DNA of 64,000 nt, taken from contig JAZSLT010000010.1 in NCBI GenBank assembly GCA_045535515.1, positions 1,916-65,915 on the forward strand. The letters are read 5' to 3'. Source of the DNA: Clostridia bacterium (GTDB lineage Bacteria; Bacillota; Clostridia; UMGS1883; UMGS1540). Shown here in pieces: positions 3,868 to 56,480 of this stretch. The stretch's first letter is position 1. Each line of letters starts with the position of its first letter. The position numbers were made by a program, and so were the translations under genes. The notes below the pieces were generated by a model. That model saw only the letters and a program-made list of their open reading frames with translations, was not told the DNA's origin and did not search any database.

Positions 3868-4012
3868 GACGCATCGATATAAATCTCTTACGAGATTTTC
3901 GATATATCCTAAAGGATTCGATATGTGCCAAGGCACTCGATATGTTTCCTTCGGAAACGAGCAAGGCGAGTATGTCGCACACAACACGCATCGATATAAA
4001 TCTCTTGCGCGG
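3843..4012 (+). repeat. CGATAT box/hairpin array (family A, locus 1) with an internal ~40-bp direct repeat
   Basis: TCGATAT boxes start at 3874, 3899, 3918 and 3937 (spacing 25, 19, 19 bp). Each is followed by a different short hairpin: aaatctc/gagattt, atcc/ggat, gtgcc/ggcac, gtttcc/ggaaac. The segment 3843-3883 is repeated at 3972-4012. Confidence 0.7.
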
Positions 4013-4689: not shown

Positions 4690-6513
4690 TTATTCGGGCA
4701 TGATAATAATTGCCGTCGCCTCATACGCCCCGCTGGAGGTAAGGCCTGTTACGGAAACCTTCATGCCGGTTTTGAGGTCCTTCACGGTCCTTGCAGAGCC
4801 GTCACCACTATCAATAACCTTGAGGTTTGCGCGTTTGGTGAAGACCGTCAGCGTCGAGGTTGCGCCGTTTTCATCGAGTGTGGCCAGCGTGAAGAAGCCA
4901 TACGAGGTGTTAATCGTTTCAATCGTACCGGTGATGGCCGCTGTGGTGGCCGGCGCCGTGCTGGTAAGGCTCGTTACCGTTTCGCTGTCAACGCTTGCGC
5001 TGATGGAGGCGCCGAGGCGCAGGTCATAAATCGTGCCTTCCTTGCCGTCCACGGTGTAGACGCAATCGCGCGATAAGCTATAGGTGCTCACAGCGTTGTT
5101 TGCGCGGATTTTAATGGCCGGAAGCTTGGCAATAATAATTTCCTCAATCGTGCCTTGTGTGATAAACTTGCTGCTGGTAGCCGTTACGGTGGCTACTCTT
5201 TCGTAGCGAAGGAGTACGGTAACCTTATCGCCGACGAGAATCTGGTCGGCCTCTGCGGAGGCGCCGTTTCTTTTCGCCACTACACTTTCCGCTACCTGAT
5301 AGGTTTCCACCTCGCCGTTTGTAAGGCGGATGGCATAGGAAAGCACAGGCTCCAGCGTAATATTTTCAATCGTACCTTTAATGTTTCGTTCGCTTTCCTC
5401 GGCTTCAATCACCACGACCTCGCCCGCGCGAATCTGCAGCTTTACGGCCTGCAGGCGTTTTAAATCAGAAATCGTGCCTGCGGTGCCCTCATAGGTGATA
5501 GCAGCTTCGTCCGAAATCGGATAGGTAAATTCCTCCTCGTCGTTATCTATGGCAAATACCGTGATTTTCTTTTCGCGGCCGGTGGTGACGACAGAAGAAA
5601 TGGCACCCTCAAATATCTCGTCCGGTTCTCTTGTGATGGTATCTATGCCATACAGAACTTCATCGCGCAGCGTAAGTAAAAGCTCGGAGCCTAAGGCGAT
5701 GCGGGAGAAATCCTCGCTATAGCCGTCCTGCTTTATGAGCGGCTTTGTTCCTACGGCTGTGCTAATCTGTGCTTCTTCCCCTTCCTCTGTCAGGAAAGTA
5801 ATGGTTTCCAGCTCGCTGTCAACCTCTTTCACCGTACCCAGCACATAGGTTTCCTTCATTTTGCCGCGCAGGCGATACAAAAGCGTGGCAATCTGCGCGC
5901 GGTTTACCTCTTCCATGGGGCCGAACAGGCCGTCGCCCATGCCGTTCATCAGTTCCTCATCCGTTACATAGCGCACATACGGCTTTGCATCGGCGGGGAT
6001 ATCCGCAGAGTCTTTATATTCTCCGGTGGAGGCATCGAGGTCCACCTTATTGCCCGCGCCCATAACGCGTGTTAAGAGCTTGGCCACCTCGTAGCGCTTC
6101 ATACCGGTCGAAGCATTGTCGCCCCCGATATAGAAGGACAGTTCCTTCTCCGTCAGCACTTCCTTATACAGGAGGAAGGCAACCTCGCTTTCATAAGGTG
6201 TATCATACTTTTCTAAAATGTCCGCATAAAACTCGGTGGCAAAGGCAGAAAAGGAGCTGAGCGTTTCATTGGTAAAGCCCAAGATACGCGCACTTAAAAC
6301 CAATGCCTCGATTTTGGTAACGGTGCGTTCCGGCTTAAAGGTGTTATCGGTGTAACCCTTAATAATGCCGTCCTCCACCATTTCCTCTACCGCATCCAGC
6401 GCCCAACCGTAGCTGTCTTTGGTAACATCGGGGAAGGTGGCCGCCATTGCAGACAGGCCCATTGTGCCTAAAAGTATAGCCGCGAGTACTACGCAAATCA
6501 ACTTTTTACTCAT
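4690..6513 (-). CDS. S-layer homology (SLH) domain cell-wall-anchored protein
   Basis: Signal peptide, then three SLH-like repeats (FPDVTKDSYGWALDAVEEMVEDGIIKGY, etc.) ahead of a long extracellular region. 607 aa. Confidence 0.7.
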   Translation of the reverse strand: MSKKLICVVLAAILLGTMGLSAMAATFPDVTKDSYGWALDAVEEMVEDGIIKGYTDNTFKPERTVTKIEALVLSARILGFTNETLSSFSAFATEFYADILEKYDTPYESEVAFLLYKEVLTEKELSFYIGGDNASTGMKRYEVAKLLTRVMGAGNKVDLDASTGEYKDSADIPADAKPYVRYVTDEELMNGMGDGLFGPMEEVNRAQIATLLYRLRGKMKETYVLGTVKEVDSELETITFLTEEGEEAQISTAVGTKPLIKQDGYSEDFSRIALGSELLLTLRDEVLYGIDTITREPDEIFEGAISSVVTTGREKKITVFAIDNDEEEFTYPISDEAAITYEGTAGTISDLKRLQAVKLQIRAGEVVVIEAEESERNIKGTIENITLEPVLSYAIRLTNGEVETYQVAESVVAKRNGASAEADQILVGDKVTVLLRYERVATVTATSSKFITQGTIEEIIIAKLPAIKIRANNAVSTYSLSRDCVYTVDGKEGTIYDLRLGASISASVDSETVTSLTSTAPATTAAITGTIETINTSYGFFTLATLDENGATSTLTVFTKRANLKVIDSGDGSARTVKDLKTGMKVSVTGLTSSGAYEATAIIIMPE

Positions 6514-6571: not shown

Positions 6572-8965
6572 TCAACTATTTTCGTGCGAAAATACAATTT
6601 TTTTGCGTTTTTTCCCTAAAAGGAAAAGCAAAATAATTGCCGTTCCCGTAGAGAGCGCAAGTCCCGTATAAAAGCCGGGGGAAACGAACCGTATCTCGAT
6701 GTGCGAGGTTCCTGCCGGCACCACAAACGAAAGGTAGGTGTCCATATAGGCAGAGGTCTCGGCCTTTTTGCCGTTGATTTTTACCGAGAACCCCTTTGTA
6801 CGGGGGATAGATGTAAAGACAAGGCTCTCTTTTTCCGTGTCGATATTGGCCGAGAGGCCTGTGCTCTTCTTTTGTACATCGTAGAAAGCTTCTTTTTGCA
6901 GCTTCGCGATGCTGTCCTTATAAGCCGCTGTGTCTAAATACTGCAAAAACATGGTGGTCAGCGGCACTTTTTTATTGTTTAGCGCCTTGACCTCTATTTC
7001 TACCTCCTCACCCGGCGCAAAGGTGCCGAGATATAAATTTATTTTGGTTTCCCGCGTGAAATAATGCGCGTGGAAAATATCGTTTACATATACCTCACAG
7101 ACATCCTCTTCCTCGCCGTCCATATAAAGATACACAGGCTCGCTGTTTGGCGCGGTGAAGGTAATGGTCGTGACGGTTTTCTTCGCGTTACTTTTCTTTC
7201 TGTATTCTATCGGATAAAAGATATCCTGCTCGATACCCGACAGGCACTCTATAAGCACATTCTGGTTTTTAAACGGATTGGCCGAAGAAAATTCGCCCAT
7301 ATCCATATTCCGGTCGGCCACAAAGCCCATCGGCAGCACATAGTCGTTTTTGTACAGCGTTTTGCTGTTATAATGCTTTTTTTCGGTATAAAATTCTTCG
7401 CTTCTTTCGCTTTTGGCCATAATGTATTTTACGCCCAGAATACTGTCCGTAACCGGCGTGGAGCCAAAATAAGAGTTCCAGAAAAATGCCTGCGCCATGC
7501 CTGCATTTTTCGTGAAGGTGTTAATGTTCTTATTATTATGGGAAGAAAAGTGTGTGATGCCATGATAACCGAGGAGCATGGAATCGTTCTTCGAATACTC
7601 GTAATCCTTTTCCACGCGGAAGAGGCCCTCGGTATCCTTGGTGACTTCACTTAAAAACCCGCTCGTTTCATCGCAAAAATCCTTGTAATCGGTAAATTTT
7701 TTATAAGTAAACTCTCTGTCCAGTCCCATAAGCATAACCTTGGAATTGTGGTACATCGTGCAGCTGAGCAGAAAAATGAGAAAAATGCAAATCGCGCTCT
7801 TGAAAACCGGCTTCAGCCGTATTTCCATATGCGCAAACTGCATATACGCCATAAAGACCATGAAAAAGCTGAAAAGAAAGGCATAGCGGTAGGGGAACCA
7901 GTTCGGCGTCTGAAACCCGTGCCAGACCTCATCGAGCGGCACCACCCAAAAGCTTACAACGAACAGGCCGATGATAGCGCCTGCCATCACCTTCGCCTTT
8001 GTCACGATTTTCGGGTTAAAGAAGAAGGCTATGGCCAGACAGGTAACGCCCACGCCGCAGAAAATGGCCGGCAGGCCGCCGTTCATGATGCTATCGTAAA
8101 AATTCGGCGTTAATTTCCGGAAGATATCCATAAAGGGGAAATTGAAGGTTTCGGGATTTTCCCAGCCGGCACCCTTGGTCGTTAAGTCCACCACCGTCGG
8201 CACAATCAGCCACGCGCTAAGGCCAATACCGGCCAGCGCGGACAGGGCAATCTTCACAAAATTTTGCCAAAGTGCCTTCGTTTCCTTTATTCCATGCAGC
8301 CAGAACCACCGGTAAAAGTAATACATCACACAGAAAACGGAAACGGAAAAGGCAAGATAATAGTTACAGATAAACACGGCCGCAATGCTCAGGATAAAAA
8401 GCGTGCCACGCCCTTTTCGGATAATATATTCTATGCCGCACAGAATAAGCGGCAGCAAAATGACGGCATCCAGCCACATCAGCGACAGGGAATAGACGAG
8501 ATTATAGCTCATCAGGGCGTAGGCTGTCGTAAAATACAGCTTAAAGGCACGGTTTTCGTCGAAGGCCTTGTCTAAATAGATGGAAAGCGTCACCCCGCAA
8601 AGGGAGATTTTGATAATTGTTAAAAGTAGGATGCCCAGCGGCAGGGTGTCGGTGCTAAACAGCACGGTGATAAAGGACAGGGGGCTTGCCAGATAATAGG
8701 CAAAAAGGCCGATGTAATTTTGGCCCATTCCCTTCTCCCAGGAGAAAAACAGGCTGGTATCGCCGCTGAAAAGGCCCTTTAGGGAGGAGAAAAAATGTAC
8801 ATACTGGTCGTTCATATCCATAATCAGGAGCGACCGCTCTCCAAACGGATAAAACCCCATAACGCGCAGTACAAGCGTTAATATGACCGCCGGCAAAAGA
8901 AAGGCCAGCGCGTGATAAAGATATTTTATTTTCGTATGCTTTTGCCCGAGCTTTGCGTTTTTCAT
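6572..8965 (-). CDS. YfhO-family polytopic membrane protein (glycosylation of teichoic acid-type polymers)
   Basis: 797 aa with many TM helices. The N-terminal region and length match the YfhO family, and it sits beside a GtrB/CsbB-type GT2. Confidence 0.7.
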   Translation of the reverse strand: MKNAKLGQKHTKIKYLYHALAFLLPAVILTLVLRVMGFYPFGERSLLIMDMNDQYVHFFSSLKGLFSGDTSLFFSWEKGMGQNYIGLFAYYLASPLSFITVLFSTDTLPLGILLLTIIKISLCGVTLSIYLDKAFDENRAFKLYFTTAYALMSYNLVYSLSLMWLDAVILLPLILCGIEYIIRKGRGTLFILSIAAVFICNYYLAFSVSVFCVMYYFYRWFWLHGIKETKALWQNFVKIALSALAGIGLSAWLIVPTVVDLTTKGAGWENPETFNFPFMDIFRKLTPNFYDSIMNGGLPAIFCGVGVTCLAIAFFFNPKIVTKAKVMAGAIIGLFVVSFWVVPLDEVWHGFQTPNWFPYRYAFLFSFFMVFMAYMQFAHMEIRLKPVFKSAICIFLIFLLSCTMYHNSKVMLMGLDREFTYKKFTDYKDFCDETSGFLSEVTKDTEGLFRVEKDYEYSKNDSMLLGYHGITHFSSHNNKNINTFTKNAGMAQAFFWNSYFGSTPVTDSILGVKYIMAKSERSEEFYTEKKHYNSKTLYKNDYVLPMGFVADRNMDMGEFSSANPFKNQNVLIECLSGIEQDIFYPIEYRKKSNAKKTVTTITFTAPNSEPVYLYMDGEEEDVCEVYVNDIFHAHYFTRETKINLYLGTFAPGEEVEIEVKALNNKKVPLTTMFLQYLDTAAYKDSIAKLQKEAFYDVQKKSTGLSANIDTEKESLVFTSIPRTKGFSVKINGKKAETSAYMDTYLSFVVPAGTSHIEIRFVSPGFYTGLALSTGTAIILLFLLGKKRKKIVFSHENS

Positions 8966-11248: not shown

Positions 11249-11383
11249 ATTGTTCCCTCGCCTTCCAAAATTTTTTTCATTATATCACGCGGCGGGGGTG
11301 TTGTCAATACGGAAAAGGAAGAAAGGTGAAAAGAATGGGGTGGATGACAATGTTTAGGCGATATAATAGATGCAGGTGTTTTT

Positions 11384-11560
11384 AGTGATATTCCAACTTC
11401 GTTGGCGTGATATTTTTGATAAATCAAAAGTGATATTGAAACCTTATGGTTTCAGTGATATTATATTTGCCATTAAACTGTGCGAAGCAAAATATCACTC
11501 GGCGAAGCCGAATATAACTGCGAAGCAATATAACTTGCCAAAGGCAAATATAACTGAAAA
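11384..11560 (+). repeat. GTGATATT / AATATAACT box-hairpin array (family B)
   Basis: Four GTGATATT boxes, each followed by a different small hairpin (ccaac/gttgg, tttgat/tcaaaa, gaaacc/ggtttc). Then an inverted AATATCAC. Then three AATATAACT boxes separated by tcggc/gccga, gc/gc and tgcc/ggca hairpins. Confidence 0.65.
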
Positions 11561-16679: not shown

Positions 16680-16800
16680 TTTCCACACTTATTTTCGTAC
16701 TTTTTCACTTTTCCACATACTTATCCACATAAAACAAGCTGATTTTGCCGCGATTTGCCTGTTTTCCACATCTTCCGGTTTTTTTGTTTTCCACTTTTCC
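16680..16800 (+). promoter_or_regulatory. oriC part 1: cluster of DnaA boxes upstream of dnaA
   Basis: A perfect TTATCCACA at 16721-16729. Four more TT(T)TCCAC(A/T) variants (ttccacact, ttttccacata, gttttccacatc, ttttccact) in the same orientation. Confidence 0.7.
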
Positions 16801-16853
16801 GCCGGTAAAAAGGCTTGCATATTATCACTTTTTGGGAAAGGATTTTTCTATAC

Positions 16854-18161
16854 ATGGATGGCGAACTTTTAAATATCTGGGAACATGCTTTGCCTCTGAT
16901 TGAGGAAGAGGTTACGCCGGTCGGCTACAAGACCTGGATTTTAGCAATTTCCCCACTTTCTATTGAAAACAATTTTTTAAATGTTTCTGTACCAAATGAG
17001 GTAAACAAAAACATGGTGGACCACCGCTACAAGGAGCTGATTCAAAATGCCGTGTACGAGGTTTCCGGTCACCGCTGTACGCTCGTGGTACATATCGGCG
17101 AGGCACCCGAGGAAAAGAAGGAAGAGAAGGCCGCCCGAAATCTCGGTATGCCGTTAAATCCGAAGTATACCTTTGACAGCTTCGTCGTCGGCGGCTCCAA
17201 CCGTTTTGCGCACGCGGCCTCGCTTGCCGTTGCCGAAACGCCGGCCAGGACCTATAATCCCTTGTTTTTGTACGGCGGCGTAGGGCTTGGCAAAACGCAT
17301 CTTCTGCATGCTATCGGCAACTTTATCATTGAAAATAACCACGATATGCAGGTAATGTACATTTCGGCCGAAACCTTTACCAATGAGCTGATTAACTCCA
17401 TCAAGGATTCGAGAAACGATGAATTCCGCGAGAAATACCGCAGCGTGGATGTTCTGATGGTGGACGATATTCAGTTTATCGCCGGCAAAAAGGTAACGGA
17501 AGAGGAATTTTTCCATACCTTTAATACGCTTTACGATGCCAATAAACAGATTATCATCACGAGTGACCGGCCGCCCAAAGAGCTGAAAACGCTGGAGGAC
17601 AGGCTTCGTTCGCGCTTTGAATGGGGCATTATCGGCGATTTGTATGCGCCTGACTATGAAACGAGAGTAGCCATTCTGCGCAAAAAAGCACAGCTCGAAA
17701 AAATTGAAATTCCCGATGAAATTCTGGAGCTGATTGCCGAGAAAATTACCTCCAATATCCGCGAGCTGGAGGGTGTTTTCAACCGCGTACTCGCGTATCG
17801 CGGCCTTATAAACAGCGAAATTACGATAGATGTGGCGCTGGATGCGATGAAAAGCTACCACGCAACAGGCGGGCCGAATGTAAGCCCCGAGGAAATTGTG
17901 GATGCCTGTGCCAAATTCTATCATGTAAAAAAAGAAGATATTATGGGCAACAAACGCACAAAGAATATTGCCCGCGCAAGGCAGGTTGTGATGTATATGA
18001 TGCGCGAGATTTTAGGGTATTCGCACCTTAAAATTGCGAAATACCTGGATAAGCACCACACAACCGTTATGTATGGCATAAATGAAGTGGAATCCGCCAT
18101 GCAGGAGGACCATGCCTTCCATATGGAAATATCCACACTCAAGAAGGATATCACAGAATAG
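16854..18161 (+). CDS. dnaA: chromosomal replication initiator protein DnaA
   Basis: AAA+ Walker A (GGVGLGKTHL), a domain IV DNA-binding region and conserved oriC synteny. Start placed at MDGELLNIWEH (16854) rather than the upstream ATG of the ORF track. Confidence 0.9.
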   Translation: MDGELLNIWEHALPLIEEEVTPVGYKTWILAISPLSIENNFLNVSVPNEVNKNMVDHRYKELIQNAVYEVSGHRCTLVVHIGEAPEEKKEEKAARNLGMPLNPKYTFDSFVVGGSNRFAHAASLAVAETPARTYNPLFLYGGVGLGKTHLLHAIGNFIIENNHDMQVMYISAETFTNELINSIKDSRNDEFREKYRSVDVLMVDDIQFIAGKKVTEEEFFHTFNTLYDANKQIIITSDRPPKELKTLEDRLRSRFEWGIIGDLYAPDYETRVAILRKKAQLEKIEIPDEILELIAEKITSNIRELEGVFNRVLAYRGLINSEITIDVALDAMKSYHATGGPNVSPEEIVDACAKFYHVKKEDIMGNKRTKNIARARQVVMYMMREILGYSHLKIAKYLDKHHTTVMYGINEVESAMQEDHAFHMEISTLKKDITE

Positions 18162-28243: not shown

Positions 28244-28254
28244 CGCTTCGGGCG

Positions 28255-28325
28255 CGGCGATATAAATTCTTCTCGGAATTTGTGATATGCTGCAAGTAAC
28301 TCGATATGTCCCTTCGGGACGAGAA
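28255..28325 (+). repeat. CGATAT box/hairpin array (family A, locus 2) in the 5' leader of pgeF
   Basis: ggCGATATaaattc..gaattt, gtGATATgctgc, then CTCGATATGTCCC-TTC-GGGACGAG immediately before the RBS AAAGGAG and the ATG at 28338. Confidence 0.65.
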
Positions 28326-30660: not shown

Positions 30661-30760
30661 TGCGATATATTTGCCTTGCAAATGCGATATACAGGCTACG
30701 CCTGCTCGATATGCCTCGCGGCTCGATATGTTGCCTTGCGGCAACGAGAATTTTACTTAT
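30661..30760 (+). repeat. CGATAT box/hairpin array (family A, locus 3)
   Basis: gtGCGATAT-atttgc/gcaaat, GCGATAT-caggc/gcctg, CGATAT-gcc..ggc, and CTCGATATG-ttgcc-ttgc-ggcaa-CGAG as the terminal module. Confidence 0.65.
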
Positions 30761-42754: not shown

Positions 42755-44131
42755 CTACCCTTCTACCTTCGGCAGAGAGGAGAGCGCCTTTTTAATTTCT
42801 TCGTCGGTGGGAATGAAGTCCGACATTTCGCCGTCGTTAAACTTCCCGTAGGCCACCATATCGAAATAGCCCGTTCCCGTAAGACCGAACACAATCGTTT
42901 TTTCCTCGCCCGTTTCCTTGCAGCGGAGCGCCTCGTCAATCGCCACGCGAATCGCATGGCTGCTCTCCGGCGCCGGCAAAATGCCTTCCACCCTGGCAAA
43001 CTGCTGTGCCGCCTCAAAAACATCCGTCTGGCAGACCGAGGTGGCTTCCATCAGCCCGTCCGCATACAGCTGGGAAAGCGTGCTGTTCATGCCGTGATAG
43101 CGAAGACCGCCCGAATGGCTGGACGACGGGATAAAACCGCTGCCTAAGGTATACATTTTAGAGAGCGGACAAACCATGCCCGTATCGCAATAATCATACG
43201 CATAGGTGCCGCGCGTAAGCGTCGGGCAGGAGGCAGGCTCTACGGCAATAATGCGATAATCCGCCTCGCCGCGCAGCATTTCGCCCACAAACGGGGAAAT
43301 TAAGCCGCCGAGATTGGAGCCGCCGCCGGCACAGCCGATGATAACATCCGGCTTTATGCCGTATTTGTCAAGCGCCGCCTTCGTTTCCAGACCAATGACC
43401 GACTGGTGGAGCATAACCTGATTTAACACGCTGCCGAGCACATAGCGGTACCCTTCTTTTTTGGAAGCCGCCTCTACCGCCTCGCTGATGGCACAGCCGA
43501 GGCTACCCGTGGTGCCGGGGTGCGCCGCTAAAATCCGCTTGCCCACTTCCGTTTCCATAGAGGGCGAGGGGGTGACGGATGCGCCGTAGGTCCGCATAAC
43601 CTCGCGGCGGAACGGCTTTTGCTCGTAGGAAACCTTTACCATATATACCTTGCAGTCAAGGCCAAAGTACGCACACGCCATCGAAAGCGCCGTGCCCCAT
43701 TGGCCGGCCCCCGTTTCGGTGGTTACGCCGCGAAGCCCCTGCTGTTTGGCATAATAGGCCTGCGCGATGGCGGAGTTGAGCTTATGACTGCCGCTTGTGT
43801 TGTTGCCCTCAAACTTATAATAGATTTTGGCGGGCGTTTCCAGCTTTTTTTCGAGACAATACGCACGCACGAGGGGTGAGGGGCGATACATTTTGTAAAA
43901 ATCGCGGATTTCCTCGGGAATTTCAAAATACGCGGTGGTATCGTCCAGCTCCTGGGCGATAAGCTCGTCGCAAAAGGTGGAGGAAAGGTCCGCCCCCGTC
44001 ATCACCTGATGCGTTTCGGGGTGGAGAAGCGGTGCCGGCTTGTTTTTCATATCGGCGCGGACATTGTACCACGCGCGCGGCATCTCCTTCTCCTCGAGAT
44101 AAATTTTATAAGGGATTTTTTCGTTTGCCAT
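42755..44131 (-). CDS. TrpB-like pyridoxal-phosphate-dependent enzyme (tryptophan synthase beta-like, TrpB2 type)
   Basis: The PLP lysine motif (SGSHKLN) and the TrpB-like fold. Start moved to MANEKIPYK (44131) with a GGAGAA RBS. Confidence 0.7.
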   Translation of the reverse strand: MANEKIPYKIYLEEKEMPRAWYNVRADMKNKPAPLLHPETHQVMTGADLSSTFCDELIAQELDDTTAYFEIPEEIRDFYKMYRPSPLVRAYCLEKKLETPAKIYYKFEGNNTSGSHKLNSAIAQAYYAKQQGLRGVTTETGAGQWGTALSMACAYFGLDCKVYMVKVSYEQKPFRREVMRTYGASVTPSPSMETEVGKRILAAHPGTTGSLGCAISEAVEAASKKEGYRYVLGSVLNQVMLHQSVIGLETKAALDKYGIKPDVIIGCAGGGSNLGGLISPFVGEMLRGEADYRIIAVEPASCPTLTRGTYAYDYCDTGMVCPLSKMYTLGSGFIPSSSHSGGLRYHGMNSTLSQLYADGLMEATSVCQTDVFEAAQQFARVEGILPAPESSHAIRVAIDEALRCKETGEEKTIVFGLTGTGYFDMVAYGKFNDGEMSDFIPTDEEIKKALSSLPKVEG

Positions 44132-44158
44132 AAGGGTTCTCCTTTCTTTGGCGGGACA

Positions 44159-44442
44159 AAAACAAAAACTCCTGTCCCACGCCATTTTGCTGGGACAGGA
44201 GAATAAAATCCTGCGGTGCCACCCGGCTTGGCGCTTTTGCGCCCACTCTACGCATACTACCATATGCCGGCCTTTTGTAACGGAGAGCCAAACTCCGGCG
44301 CCCATACTCCAAAACTGTTTCTGTTTGCCCTCGAAGGTCCATTCGGCTTTATGTTTTTCACCGCAATCCCACCGCCTGCGGCTCTCTTTTGAAAAAGGGA
44401 TAAAGCGTACTTACTCCTTCTCAACGGTTTACCTAAGTATAA
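44159..44442 (-). promoter_or_regulatory. T-box riboswitch leader (probable tRNA-Trp specifier) with an intrinsic terminator, controlling the TrpB-like gene
   Basis: Minus-strand promoter TTGACA-17-TATACT (44465 to 44437). T-box sequence GGGTGGCACCGCAGG (44225-44211). Terminator ctcctgtccca..tgggacaggag + U-run (44202-44159), which shares bases with an alternative antiterminator. A candidate UGG specifier sits at 44342-44340. Confidence 0.6.
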
Positions 44443-45800: not shown

Positions 45801-45836
45801 TGTATGCGCGGAGAGGAGGGGGTGTGCAGGAAAGGA

Positions 45837-45865
45837 TTGCATTTTTTTAAGGGGTGTGGTATAAT
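45837..45865 (+). promoter_or_regulatory. promoter (TTGCAT, 17 bp, TGgTATAAT) driving the family-A array leader and the DUF1624 gene
   Basis: -35 at 45837-45842 and extended -10 TATAAT at 45860-45865. The predicted transcription start is about 25 nt before the first CGATAT box. Confidence 0.5.
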
Positions 45866-45889
45866 GAATTTAATTGCAAAGCAATTAAA

Positions 45890-46190
45890 TTCAGCGATAT
45901 AAATTCCTGACGGAATTTGCGATATGTACTTCGTACGCGATATATCTTCGATGCGATATGTCCCTTCGGGACGAGAAATAGGAATTTATATCATATCGCA
46001 ACGGAATGAAATGGAGTTATATCGCATTTGAACAGAGTGAAAATATATCGCACGAACGAAGTGAGTATATCGCCAAAAGTCGGCATCTAAATTGTGCACG
46101 AATTCAGCGATATAAATTCCTGACGGAATTTGCGATATGTACTTCGTACGCGATATATCTTCGATGCGATATGTCCCTTCGGGACGGAAA
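45890..46190 (+). repeat. CGATAT box/hairpin array (family A, locus 4): unit, inverted boxes, unit
   Basis: A near-perfect 88-bp direct repeat (45890-45975 and 46098-46186). Each copy has four GCGATAT boxes separated by aattcc/ggaatt, gtac/gtac and gtccc/gggac hairpins. The central 45976-46097 carries four inverted boxes (ATATCGC). The array ends in CGATATGTCCC-TTC-GGGACGG + RBS + ATG at 46203. Confidence 0.7.
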
Positions 46191-46202
46191 AAGGAGAAGA
46201 AA

Positions 46203-46940
46203 ATGGGAAAAGAGCGCATTTTTTGGATAGATGAATGGCGGGGCGTAGCCCTCCTTGCCATGATACTACATCATATTGCGTTTAACCTGACGGATTTTCT
46301 GGCGCTGCCGTTGCCGCTTGTCCGGGCGGTGCTTTCGAGCCGCGCATTTGACGCGGTGCAGACGGTGTTTATTGCTATTTTCTTTTGCATATCCGGCATT
46401 TGCTGCCGTTTCTCCAAAAGGCCTTATCTTCGCGCGGGGCGCGTCCTTCTCGGGGCCGCGGCCGTGACGGCGGTGACATGGGCGCTTTTTCCGGACGAGG
46501 CGATATGGTTTGGTGTTTTGCATTGTCTTGGTGCGTGCATGCTTTTGTATGCGGTTTTCGGGCGGTGGCTCCGGAAAATACCGCCGCTTTTGGGAATTGC
46601 CGGAGCTATTCTTCTTTTTGTTATTACCTGCCGCGTGCCAGACGGATTTTTGCTTTTTCTCCCCTTGCCGGCCGGTTGGTATTGCGGCGGTCTTCTTACG
46701 ATTTTCGGCTTTTCCGCGCCGCTTTTTACCTCGCTCGACTATGTGCCGCTTCTGCCGCACCTGTTTCTGTTTTTGATAGGCGTGTTTATCGGCCGTCTGC
46801 CGCTGAAAAATAGTCGGCAGCACAGCCGTTTTCTGGCGTTTTTGGGGCGGCACAGCCTTTCGGTCTATCTTTTGCATCAGCCGCTTTTGTTCGGGGTGTT
46901 TTTGTGTTTCGAAAAAATCCTAGGAGGGATGAAACTATGA
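46203..46940 (+). CDS. DUF1624 / acyltransferase-3-like membrane protein
   Basis: Polytopic membrane protein with the N-terminal WIDEWRGVALLAMILHH motif typical of DUF1624. Confidence 0.55.
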   Translation: MGKERIFWIDEWRGVALLAMILHHIAFNLTDFLALPLPLVRAVLSSRAFDAVQTVFIAIFFCISGICCRFSKRPYLRAGRVLLGAAAVTAVTWALFPDEAIWFGVLHCLGACMLLYAVFGRWLRKIPPLLGIAGAILLFVITCRVPDGFLLFLPLPAGWYCGGLLTIFGFSAPLFTSLDYVPLLPHLFLFLIGVFIGRLPLKNSRQHSRFLAFLGRHSLSVYLLHQPLLFGVFLCFEKILGGMKL

Positions 46941-56390: not shown

Positions 56391-56480
56391 GGAGCTAAAT
56401 TGACCTTCGGTCAGCTAAATTGCCTGCGGCAGCTAAATTCGCCTTGCGGCGAGCTGAATGTGCTTCGCACGCGAAATTAT
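56391..56480 (+). repeat. AGCTAAATT box/hairpin array (family C)
   Basis: AGCTAAATT-gacc-ttc-ggtc, AGCTAAATT-gcc-tgc-ggc, AGCTAAATT-cgcc-ttgc-ggcg, AGCTGAATG-tgc-ttc-gca, CGCGAAATT. It starts 2 nt after the phosphoesterase stop codon. Confidence 0.65.

Follow-up and report, generated by a model that had tools for sequence, protein, structure and literature searches.

A Gut-1-related array upstream of a DUF1624 gene, read as a dispersed REP/BIME-like composite repeat

Upstream of a DUF1624 gene in a Clostridia bacterium, the 7-nt motif GCGATAT recurs on both strands in a dense array. Does such an array serve the gene that it precedes, or does it belong to a repeat that has settled beside many genes? 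We analyzed this question on a 64,000-nt stretch of contig JAZSLT010000010.1 (the window; coordinates count from its first nucleotide). An earlier note on this DNA had proposed a leader-based regulatory role, or a DNA operator array, for the repeats upstream of the DUF1624 gene and of pgeF. Overall, the repeats themselves are borne out, and that interpretation is only partly supported. Sequence comparisons lead us to read the DUF1624-leader locus as a new member of the Gut-1 family, and to read it as a dispersed composite repeat resembling the repetitive extragenic palindromic sequences and bacterial interspersed mosaic elements (REP/BIME). The region ∼45866–46186 probably consists of three clustered arms of a dispersed modular intergenic repeat (A1 forward, B inverted and A2 forward), and not of a device dedicated to the DUF1624 gene.

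The cluster is bounded by a promoter and a membrane acyltransferase gene. The gene (46203–46940, plus strand) encodes a product of the HGSNAT_cat/DUF1624 family (Pfam PF07786, E = 4.5e-39), and its N-terminus read from ATG 46203 agrees with the orthologs. The promoter is the one that the earlier note had recognized at 45837–45865: on the plus strand, a −35 element TTGCAT (45837–45842) is followed by a 17-nt spacer and an extended −10 element TGG-TATAAT (45857–45865). A consensus promoter scan passed over it only because the −35 element matches 3 of 6 positions. Transcription is predicted to start near 45872. In a terminator scan, no plus-strand terminator was found between this promoter and the DUF1624 gene; with the promoter conserved and no terminator intervening, the array is very probably a sense 5′ leader, as had been proposed, and the pgeF array is sense-oriented as well. 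The gene on the other side of the array is a divergent LysM-GH18 gene. In the segment 45799–45842 (minus strand), the CAT of the −35 TTGCAT, read in reverse, supplies the ATG of its longest open reading frame; from conservation in orthologous loci L003 and L004, a start at 45801 is favoured instead.

The array opens with hp0, a perfect 13-bp palindrome TGAATTTAATTGC-AAA-GCAATTAAATTCA (45865–45893, plus strand) that was recognized as an inverted repeat and in the predicted fold. It overlaps the −10 element and the predicted start, and it precedes the dinucleotide CA and the first box; other copies of the family have a different hairpin at this position. Forward arm A1 (45888–45979, plus strand) contains four GCGATAT boxes (45894, 45919, 45937 and 45953), four hairpins (45901–45918, 45926–45936, 45944–45952 and 45960–45972) and a GAGAAAT tail. 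The palindromes 3′ of the forward boxes are AAATTCC-TGAC-GGAATTT, GTAC-TTC-GTAC, ATC-TTC-GAT and GTCCC-TTC-GGGAC. Arm A1 is followed by a junction AGGAATTTATATC (45980–45992, plus strand), which is the exact complement of GATATAAATTCCT (45896–45908), which covers the 3′-terminal 5 nt of box 1 and the upstream half of hairpin 1. The junction can form a 100% complementary, 13-bp long-range stem that closes arm A1 as an alternative to hairpin 1, and this stem is used in the minimum-free-energy fold.

Inverted arm B (45993–46073, minus strand) carries four GCGATAT boxes, at 45993, 46019, 46045 and 46067. These inverted boxes had been noticed before and are all present; the hairpins between them are poor, with stems of 2–4 bp, so that in arm B the boxes are kept and the hairpins degenerate. 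One of its segments, ACTCACTTCGTTCGT, is similar to the module ACACTCACTTCGTTCGTGT of locus L146. A spacer CAAAAGTCGGCATCTAAATTGTGCACG (46074–46100, plus strand) separates arm B from arm A2; in a pairwise alignment, its part GGCATCTAAA is common to the window and to the ortholog L002. Arm A2 (46101–46191, plus strand), a 98% copy of A1, again has four hairpins, and four boxes at 46107, 46132, 46150 and 46166. The near-identity of the two units, claimed earlier, is real, and their limits need correction: a repeat search gave a 91-nt direct repeat at 45888–45978 and 46101–46191, 98% identical and 213 nt apart, instead of units at 45890–45975 and 46098–46186. Within each copy, the boxes are located at offsets +6, +31, +49 and +65. 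The terminal GTCCC-TTC-GGGAC hairpin (46173–46185) leads into the ribosome-binding site AAAGGAG (46190–46196) and ATG 46203 (together 46190–46205, plus strand, from the sequence and the predicted leader fold), just as described earlier. Array-internal ATGs at 46137 and 28287 are in frame with DUF1624 and pgeF, respectively, and give open-reading-frame calls false N-terminal extensions; the true starts are 46203 for DUF1624 and 28338 for pgeF.

Both boxes and hairpins are more numerous than shuffled sequence would give. GCGATAT occurs 34 times in the window, compared to 11.4 ± 3.2 expected, and none of 100 shuffles reached 34; 12 of the 34 occurrences fall within the 280 nt from 45894 to 46172. 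Of the 29 inter-box segments in the arrays of the window, 22 form a symmetric stem of 4 or more Watson-Crick pairs, with 0.55 expected from shuffles (maximum 4).

If the array were dedicated to the DUF1624 gene, it should be conserved with the gene across orthologs. What is conserved is the promoter: in the alignment of six orthologous upstream regions, ATTGC.TTTT....T.TG.TA.A.T is invariant and its spacing fixed, and the promoter keeps its position as well as its sequence. In L003 (64% protein identity), L004–L007 (58%) and L008–L009 (57%), the ribosome-binding site follows within ∼25 nt of the promoter and there is no array. Since these loci retain the promoter without an array, the ∼320-nt leader of DUF1624 in the window is read as a lineage-specific insertion. 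The nearest relative, L002 (80% protein and 78% coding-sequence nucleotide identity), whose contig ends 120 nt upstream, does have a leader array, composed of hp0 and only two modules before the ribosome-binding site. Over 23 nt, the terminal module of L002 does not differ from that of the window, and the spacer found after arm B recurs in L002. The element would so have entered the DUF1624 leader before the window organism and the L002 organism split; the number of modules appears to have changed since, and A1 and A2, at 98% identity, probably reflect a recent duplication.

Similar histories are seen at other sites. The array 3′ of yifB is kept in L250 (86% protein identity, from the same sample as L002), with an extra inverted arm and with two of four modules shared with the window, and it is absent from L251 (77%) and L252 (76%). 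No arrays were found in ∼20 kb each of the relatives L004 and L008, nor in ∼21 kb each of L251 and L252. L248, which carries a DUF3798 ortholog (64% identity), has an array directly 3′ of the stop codon (17192–17332), at the same site as the pgeF array of the window. It uses a different box, ATGAATT, four times, with the same grammar and a matching junction AATTC-AATTCAT. When genome contigs were searched with the DUF1624 protein, the sole match was one of 29% identity in Lagierella, and looking up this protein exactly retrieved no contig; the nearest named YifB is from Congzhengia (55%).

The predicted fold of the leader also bears on a gene-specific role. The leader folds with −96 kcal/mol (z = −3.1), either into many small hairpins or through long-range pairings between boxes, and in both the minimum-free-energy and the centroid folds its last 30 nt stay free of pairing, among them the ribosome-binding site; the start codon, too, is unpaired in the predicted fold. 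An unpaired ribosome-binding site and the lack of a plus-strand terminator argue against a gene-specific switch, and an attenuator, riboswitch or T-box-like leader was rejected, the array also being absent from orthologs that keep the promoter. Box spacing is irregular (25, 18 and 16 nt, then 26, 26 and 22 nt), with no helical phasing such as an operator array would have, and a phased operator array was rejected. The model of the earlier note, in which a 5′ leader or DNA operator array is dedicated to the control of the DUF1624 gene and pgeF in cis, seems to us highly improbable. The conserved promoter with an array between it and the ribosome-binding site, the retention of the array in L002 and the perfect 13-bp palindrome over the −10 element and start site do speak for such a device. 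Against it, the array is missing from five orthologous loci that retain the promoter, the same element lies in 3′ regions and in an intergenic spacer beside unrelated genes, the ribosome-binding site is free, no terminator or antiterminator and no regular box spacing are seen, and no Rfam cis-regulatory family matches.

The copies elsewhere in the window indicate how widely the element is dispersed. The 64 kb contain 6 sites with at least 10 arms between them, a density of about one per 6 kb, and the neighbouring genes are unrelated: they encode an RNA methyltransferase, MadL (madL, with tRNAs), a DUF3798 protein, PgeF, YifB, the DUF1624 protein and a phosphoesterase. Four of the window arrays start 0–6 nt past a stop codon. 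Outside the DUF1624 leader, the boxes are TCGATAT, GTGATAT/GTTATAT, GCGATAT or GCTAAAT. The copy at 3874–3962 (plus strand), 6 nt past the RNA methyltransferase stop codon, has four TCGATAT boxes with hairpins and a GAGC tail; it is followed by a partial duplicate (3972–4008), in which the segment 3855–3893, containing the last codons and stop of the methyltransferase gene, box 1 and the 5′ half of hairpin 1, is repeated on the far side of the array. At 11.4 kb, an arm with GTTATAT/GTGATAT boxes (11487–11556, minus strand) is accompanied by an inverted partner arm with GTGATAT boxes (11358–11466, plus strand). This composite (11358–11556) sits between a tRNA terminator and a promoter; the promoter, which adjoins it and precedes the madL-like gene, is a perfect consensus, TTGACA-17-TG-TATAAT (11279–11307, minus strand).

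The copy at 28244–28325 (plus strand) lies between the DUF3798 stop codon and the ribosome-binding site of pgeF, whose product matches Cu-oxidase_4 (5.9e-80). Its first and last modules are as in A1 and A2, and the terminal module TCGATAT-GTCCCTTCGGGAC-GAGAAAAAGGAG that had been reported before pgeF is indeed found there. Two more copies follow stop codons: one at 30662–30749 (plus strand), 3 nt past that of yifB, with two GCGATAT and two TCGATAT boxes and a GAGAA tail, and one at 56394–56470 (plus strand), 4 nt past that of the phosphoesterase gene and upstream of the terminator of that gene, with three GCTAAAT boxes, one GCTGAAT and one GCGAAAT. Like REP/BIME elements, the family has multiple intergenic copies beside unrelated genes, is present or absent at orthologous sites, and forms alternating clusters; in the window, orientation alternates as plus/minus/plus at 45.9–46.2 kb and plus/minus at 11.4 kb.

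Is the element already known? The arm at 11487–11556 matches the Gut-1 model of Rfam (RF01706) with 51.7 bits, above the gathering threshold of 50 bits. Other arms score below the threshold: 34 bits for the inverted partner arm, 30.2 bits for the pgeF array, and 33.4 bits for both A1 and A2 (E = 8.5e-5 on 481 nt, 0.011 window-wide). All three hairpins of the Gut-1 model align to A1 and A2, which contain at least three consecutive short hairpins with a conserved 7-nt linker, as Gut-1 does. GCGAUAU matches the Gut-1 linker consensus GUGAAAU at 5 of 7 positions, and the seed rows themselves include GCGAUAU, GUGAUAU and GUUAUAU. Furthermore, the seed rows show a junction and an inverted arm after the forward arm, and one of them follows a tRNA and terminator, as at 11.4 kb. 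The window, L433 (of GTGAAAT type) and the seed rows BAAZ01000095 and BAAZ01025322 share one architecture: the first hairpin is of the type AAATYCC..GGRATTT, and the junction consists of X′ (the 3′ arm of hairpin 1), a truncated inverted box and an inverted box, followed by the inverted arm. Judged from these alignments, Gut-1 appears to model the forward arm of the same composite element. In addition, locus L202 (8958–9260) has a canonical Gut-1 array (GTGAAAT, 55.3 bits) adjoining GCGATAT-type inverted and forward arms in one intergenic region, so that the two box variants coexist side by side.

Gut-1 was reported only as occurring in human gut sequences, and it was rated as certainly an RNA and not cis-regulatory (Weinberg et al. 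2010, PMC2864571). Its Rfam entry is typed 'Gene; sRNA', that is, a stand-alone small RNA gene. Full-text literature searching for Gut-1 turned up nothing beyond the original 2010 report (PMC2864571). A1 and A2 resemble Gut-1 in their tandem short hairpins with C-UUC-G type apexes, in their conserved 7-nt linkers and in their occurrence in gut Clostridia-type sequences. They differ from the Rfam description in that they belong to a dispersed composite of forward arm, junction and inverted arm, found in leaders, 3′ regions and phages. An independent small RNA would hardly have the surroundings seen here: the DUF1624 locus has a promoter but, going by its sequence, no terminator before the coding sequence, and other copies are intercistronic or 3′.

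The grammar of the element was derived by comparing the window with metagenome and viral contigs retrieved by a GCGATAT-triple pattern. Among 480 pattern matches, 69 passed a loose hairpin filter and ∼16 loci contain true arrays, defined as different palindromes between identical boxes; most matches were rejected as coding tandem repeats or chance. A module consists of a 7-nt box (here GCGATAT) and a short near-perfect palindrome with C-G as its closing pair and a loop of the form T..C. In full, the element runs from hp0, CA, box 1, a first hairpin X-loop-X′ and further box-hairpin modules through a GAGA-type tail, X′ again, the inverted box minus its last two bases and an inverted box to the inverted arm. 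The same composite was found in L025, L095, L146, L195, L200, L202, L250 and L433, and forward-inverted or inverted-forward pairs in L025, L146, L195, L200, L202, L220 and L250. Certain stem module types recur across loci (ATTTGC..GCAAAT, GTTGC..GCAAC and ATCGC..GCGAT), with loops that vary within the T..C pattern.

The junction follows the rest of the element. X′ varies together with hairpin 1 across loci (AAATTCC, AAATCCC, AAATCC, GCATTCC and GGATCC), and the truncated inverted box tracks the box: ATATC with GCGATAT, ATTTC with GTGAAAT in L433, and AATTC with ATGAATT in L248. Such a junction, co-varying with both hairpin 1 and box, is seen in L025, L095, L146, L195, L200, L433, L248 and the Gut-1 seed. 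A 12–13-bp inverted repeat (GATAT-X / X′-ATATC) encloses the forward arm, with X′ duplicated. The pattern may come from an insertion that left a duplication behind, or from alternative pairing around the forward arm, which explains both features equally well. An 18-nt direct repeat flanking the element in L025 may belong to hp0.

Similar arrays occur in further gut metagenome contigs, and phage genomes carry the element too. Two IMG/VR contigs, L095 and L025, have GCGATAT arrays between genes for terminase, P22-like portal and capsid proteins, at 5008–5091, 7057–7150 and 10041–10185 in L095 and at 1428–1493 and 4352–4522 in L025. In 80 loci (480 kb) retrieved with the L095 portal, arrays were present only in L095, whose terminase-portal spacer is 245 nt long compared to 0–20 nt in relatives; the phage copies, too, are probably insertions. 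A related phage, L494, has a different insert, a long palindrome of ∼150 nt, between terminase and portal (1875–2041), which suggests that this junction is a recurrent landing site for small elements. A blastn search of the leader against 50,697 annotated phages gave no match. Viral contigs scanned for GTGAAAT triples yielded three true arrays, and those scanned for ATGAATT triples yielded none.

Do the arrays act as RNA or as DNA? Here the evidence is mixed. The stems of 69 distinct hairpins comprise 373 Watson-Crick positions, 1 G·U, 4 A·C and 10 other. With G·U pairs nearly absent, there is no wobble signature of selection on one RNA strand, and the stems look like perfect DNA palindromes or the products of a templated process. 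Because the palindromes are perfect, counts over hairpins were more informative than a covariance model. Orientation shows in other features: 54 of 61 hairpins are closed by a C-G pair, and the loops are of T..C types (TTC, TGC, TTAC and TGAC), 67% pyrimidine on the box strand. Forward arms, whose orientation relative to genes was curated by hand, are co-oriented with the adjacent genes in ∼24 of 27 cases, the exceptions being L200, L204 and one arm of L025. Folding the whole leader gives favourable energies for either strand (z = −3.1 and −5.4) and so does not tell which strand is functional.

It is possible that single-stranded boxes titrate or recruit an RNA-binding factor, as suggested earlier. 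In its full form, this idea makes the array a protein-binding RNA platform: the hairpins would keep the GCGAUAU boxes single-stranded and present four sites per arm to an RNA-binding protein or ribonuclease, every transcript with an array would come under common regulation or processing, and arrays that are free would serve as sponges in the manner of CsrB/RsmZ for CsrA. The conserved box beside freely varying stems fits this proposal, and so do the strand-oriented boxes and loops, the co-orientation of forward arms with transcription (∼24 of 27), the location of arrays within transcribed 5′, intercistronic and 3′ regions, and the rating of Gut-1 as certainly RNA (Weinberg et al. 2010, PMC2864571). 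We consider it unlikely nonetheless, since the wobble signature expected of RNA-level selection is missing from the stems (373 Watson-Crick, 1 G·U and 4 A·C), several box variants occur in one genome (GCGATAT, GTTATAT and GCTAAAT), one composite sits between a terminator and a promoter, inverted arms put the complement of the box into the same transcript, and no candidate protein is known.

Alternatively, the element may work at the DNA level, its palindromes extruding in single-stranded DNA and serving, together with the box, as the substrate of a strand-specific enzyme, with the RNA as a by-product. Parallels would be REP sequences, which have a GTAG tetranucleotide and REP-associated tyrosine transposases (RAYTs), or the ends of IS200/IS605. 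The nearly pure Watson-Crick stems without G·U excess agree with such an origin, the orientation bias could equally follow the direction of replication, X′ on both sides of the inner modules resembles a target-site duplication, the distribution among relatives and phages is patchy, and the arms alternate as in BIMEs. Several observations make it quite improbable: hairpin sequences vary from one module to the next, in contrast to the specific hairpin that known Y1 enzymes read; no transposase was identified in these 64 kb, with no search aimed at one; in a single case, the array at 3874, orientation agrees with the gene on what is apparently the opposite replichore; and the oriented T..C loops would need explaining.

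A broader proposal, to which we give limited credence, is that box-hairpin arrays, with Gut-1 as one box variant, constitute a hitherto unrecognized class of non-autonomous, strand-oriented propagating elements of gut Clostridia and their phages, in which a trans factor reads the 7-nt box. That factor, an enzyme or RNA-binding factor, would recognize the box beside any perfect hairpin, and the box would co-evolve with it; the perfect stems would arise from templated fold-back synthesis and not from selection. Co-evolution of box and factor would account for lineage-specific boxes (GCGATAT, GTGAAAT, ATGAATT and GCTAAAT) under one grammar, and for different boxes at one orthologous site.

For the DUF1624 locus, we favour the reading as a cluster of three arms of a dispersed repeat. 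In the lineage of this organism and its nearest relative, insertion of the cluster would have moved an ancestral promoter away from the ribosome-binding site, and the cluster would later have changed by gain and loss of modules and by local duplication. The resulting leader, probably ∼330 nt from ∼45872, would have a hairpin at its 5′ end, formed by the inner part of hp0, and a free ribosome-binding site at the other. Its effect on DUF1624 would be generic and not signal-specific, such as protection of the mRNA end, processing, or display of the GCGAUAU box to a factor that acts on all copies; at most, the anatomy supports a generic effect on mRNA stability or processing, of the kind seen with REP and BOX elements. 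The family as a whole would spread, strand-oriented, into tight intergenic spacers of chromosomes and phages.

Several points weigh against this account. The start site and the co-transcription of the array with the gene are inferred, not measured, and insertion is deduced from presence and absence at 57–86% protein identity, not between near-identical strains. The bias of forward arms towards the direction of the genes, the C-G closing pairs and the pyrimidine-rich T..C loops described above suggest selection on a single-stranded form over neutral junk. The leader array has been retained since the split from L002, with 23 nt of the terminal module identical against a coding sequence at 78%, and a real function, even at the DUF1624 gene, is possible. 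In these 64 kb of genome, with no search aimed at transposases, no enzyme that might mobilise the element was found; clear inverted repeats at its ends were lacking as well, and no target-site duplication was unambiguous.

Comparison with known systems helps to place the element. REP/BIME elements of enterobacteria and pseudomonads are short palindromes with a conserved short motif; they are intergenic, often follow stop codons and have generic effects on mRNA stability. The element described here is like them in its many intergenic copies, its post-stop and transcribed positions, its alternating clusters and its patchy distribution among relatives. In REP, however, the hairpin is constant, whereas here the linear box is constant and the hairpin sequence varies; moreover, the arms are chains of 2–5 modules, no linked RAYT gene was seen in the 64 kb, with no search aimed at transposases, and the hosts are gut Clostridia-type bacteria and phages. 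Pneumococcal BOX elements are modular, with a variable number of internal modules; they are intergenic and co-transcribed, and can alter the expression of neighbouring genes. Modular build, variable module number and strong secondary structure are shared with BOX and with repeats like miniature inverted-repeat transposable elements. BOX modules are 45–59 nt long and fixed in sequence, whereas modules here are 16–25 nt long with free stems; unlike the latter repeats, the element has no confidently defined terminal inverted repeats or target duplications.

With CsrB/RsmZ, the likeness is one of functional analogy only: a short single-stranded motif is repeatedly shown between or on many small hairpins. 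CsrB and RsmZ come from separate small RNA genes and have CsrA, which binds GGA, as their established partner; the arrays described here have neither a partner nor GGA, are embedded in mRNA and include inverted arms. The alternation of a constant short repeat with variable segments also recalls clustered regularly interspaced short palindromic repeats (CRISPR), whose repeats are 23–50 nt long with unique spacers of similar length, in contrast to the 7-nt box and recurring palindromes here. A CRISPR array was rejected, as the boxes are of 7 nt, the 9–19-nt segments are palindromic and of recurring types, and CRISPR repeat models gave only chance matches (E above 0.8); no leader or cas context was seen near the arrays. 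Repeats of type III toxin-antitoxin systems, identical tandem units before a toxin gene, were also considered and rejected.

Gut-1 has been in Rfam since 2010 as an orphan 'small RNA' from gut metagenomes, and the window now gives it the context of an assembled genome. In this context it behaves like a composite repeat that is densely dispersed: its arms are forward or inverted, its boxes vary, some copies lie in phage operons, and it occupies tight intergenic spacers. For annotation, such loci are not to be taken for riboswitch-like leaders, and start codons inside arrays may be miscalled; contig breaks at such arrays also find an explanation. The problem is now defined as which factor recognizes a 7-nt box next to a perfect hairpin of any sequence, and in which nucleic acid it does so. 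For DUF1624 itself, little would follow beyond a leader that is long and structured and leaves the ribosome-binding site free.

Two further features of the window were recorded. A T-box leader (44188–44433, minus strand), with 92.5 bits against an Rfam threshold of 93 (E = 6.6e-19), lies before the gene of a PALP-family enzyme (42755–44305). A cluster of DnaA boxes (TTATCCACA and TTTTCCACA) at 16680–16800 is located upstream of dnaA (16815–18161)-dnaN-recF-gyrB-gyrA, where gene orientation switches, and is a probable chromosomal origin.

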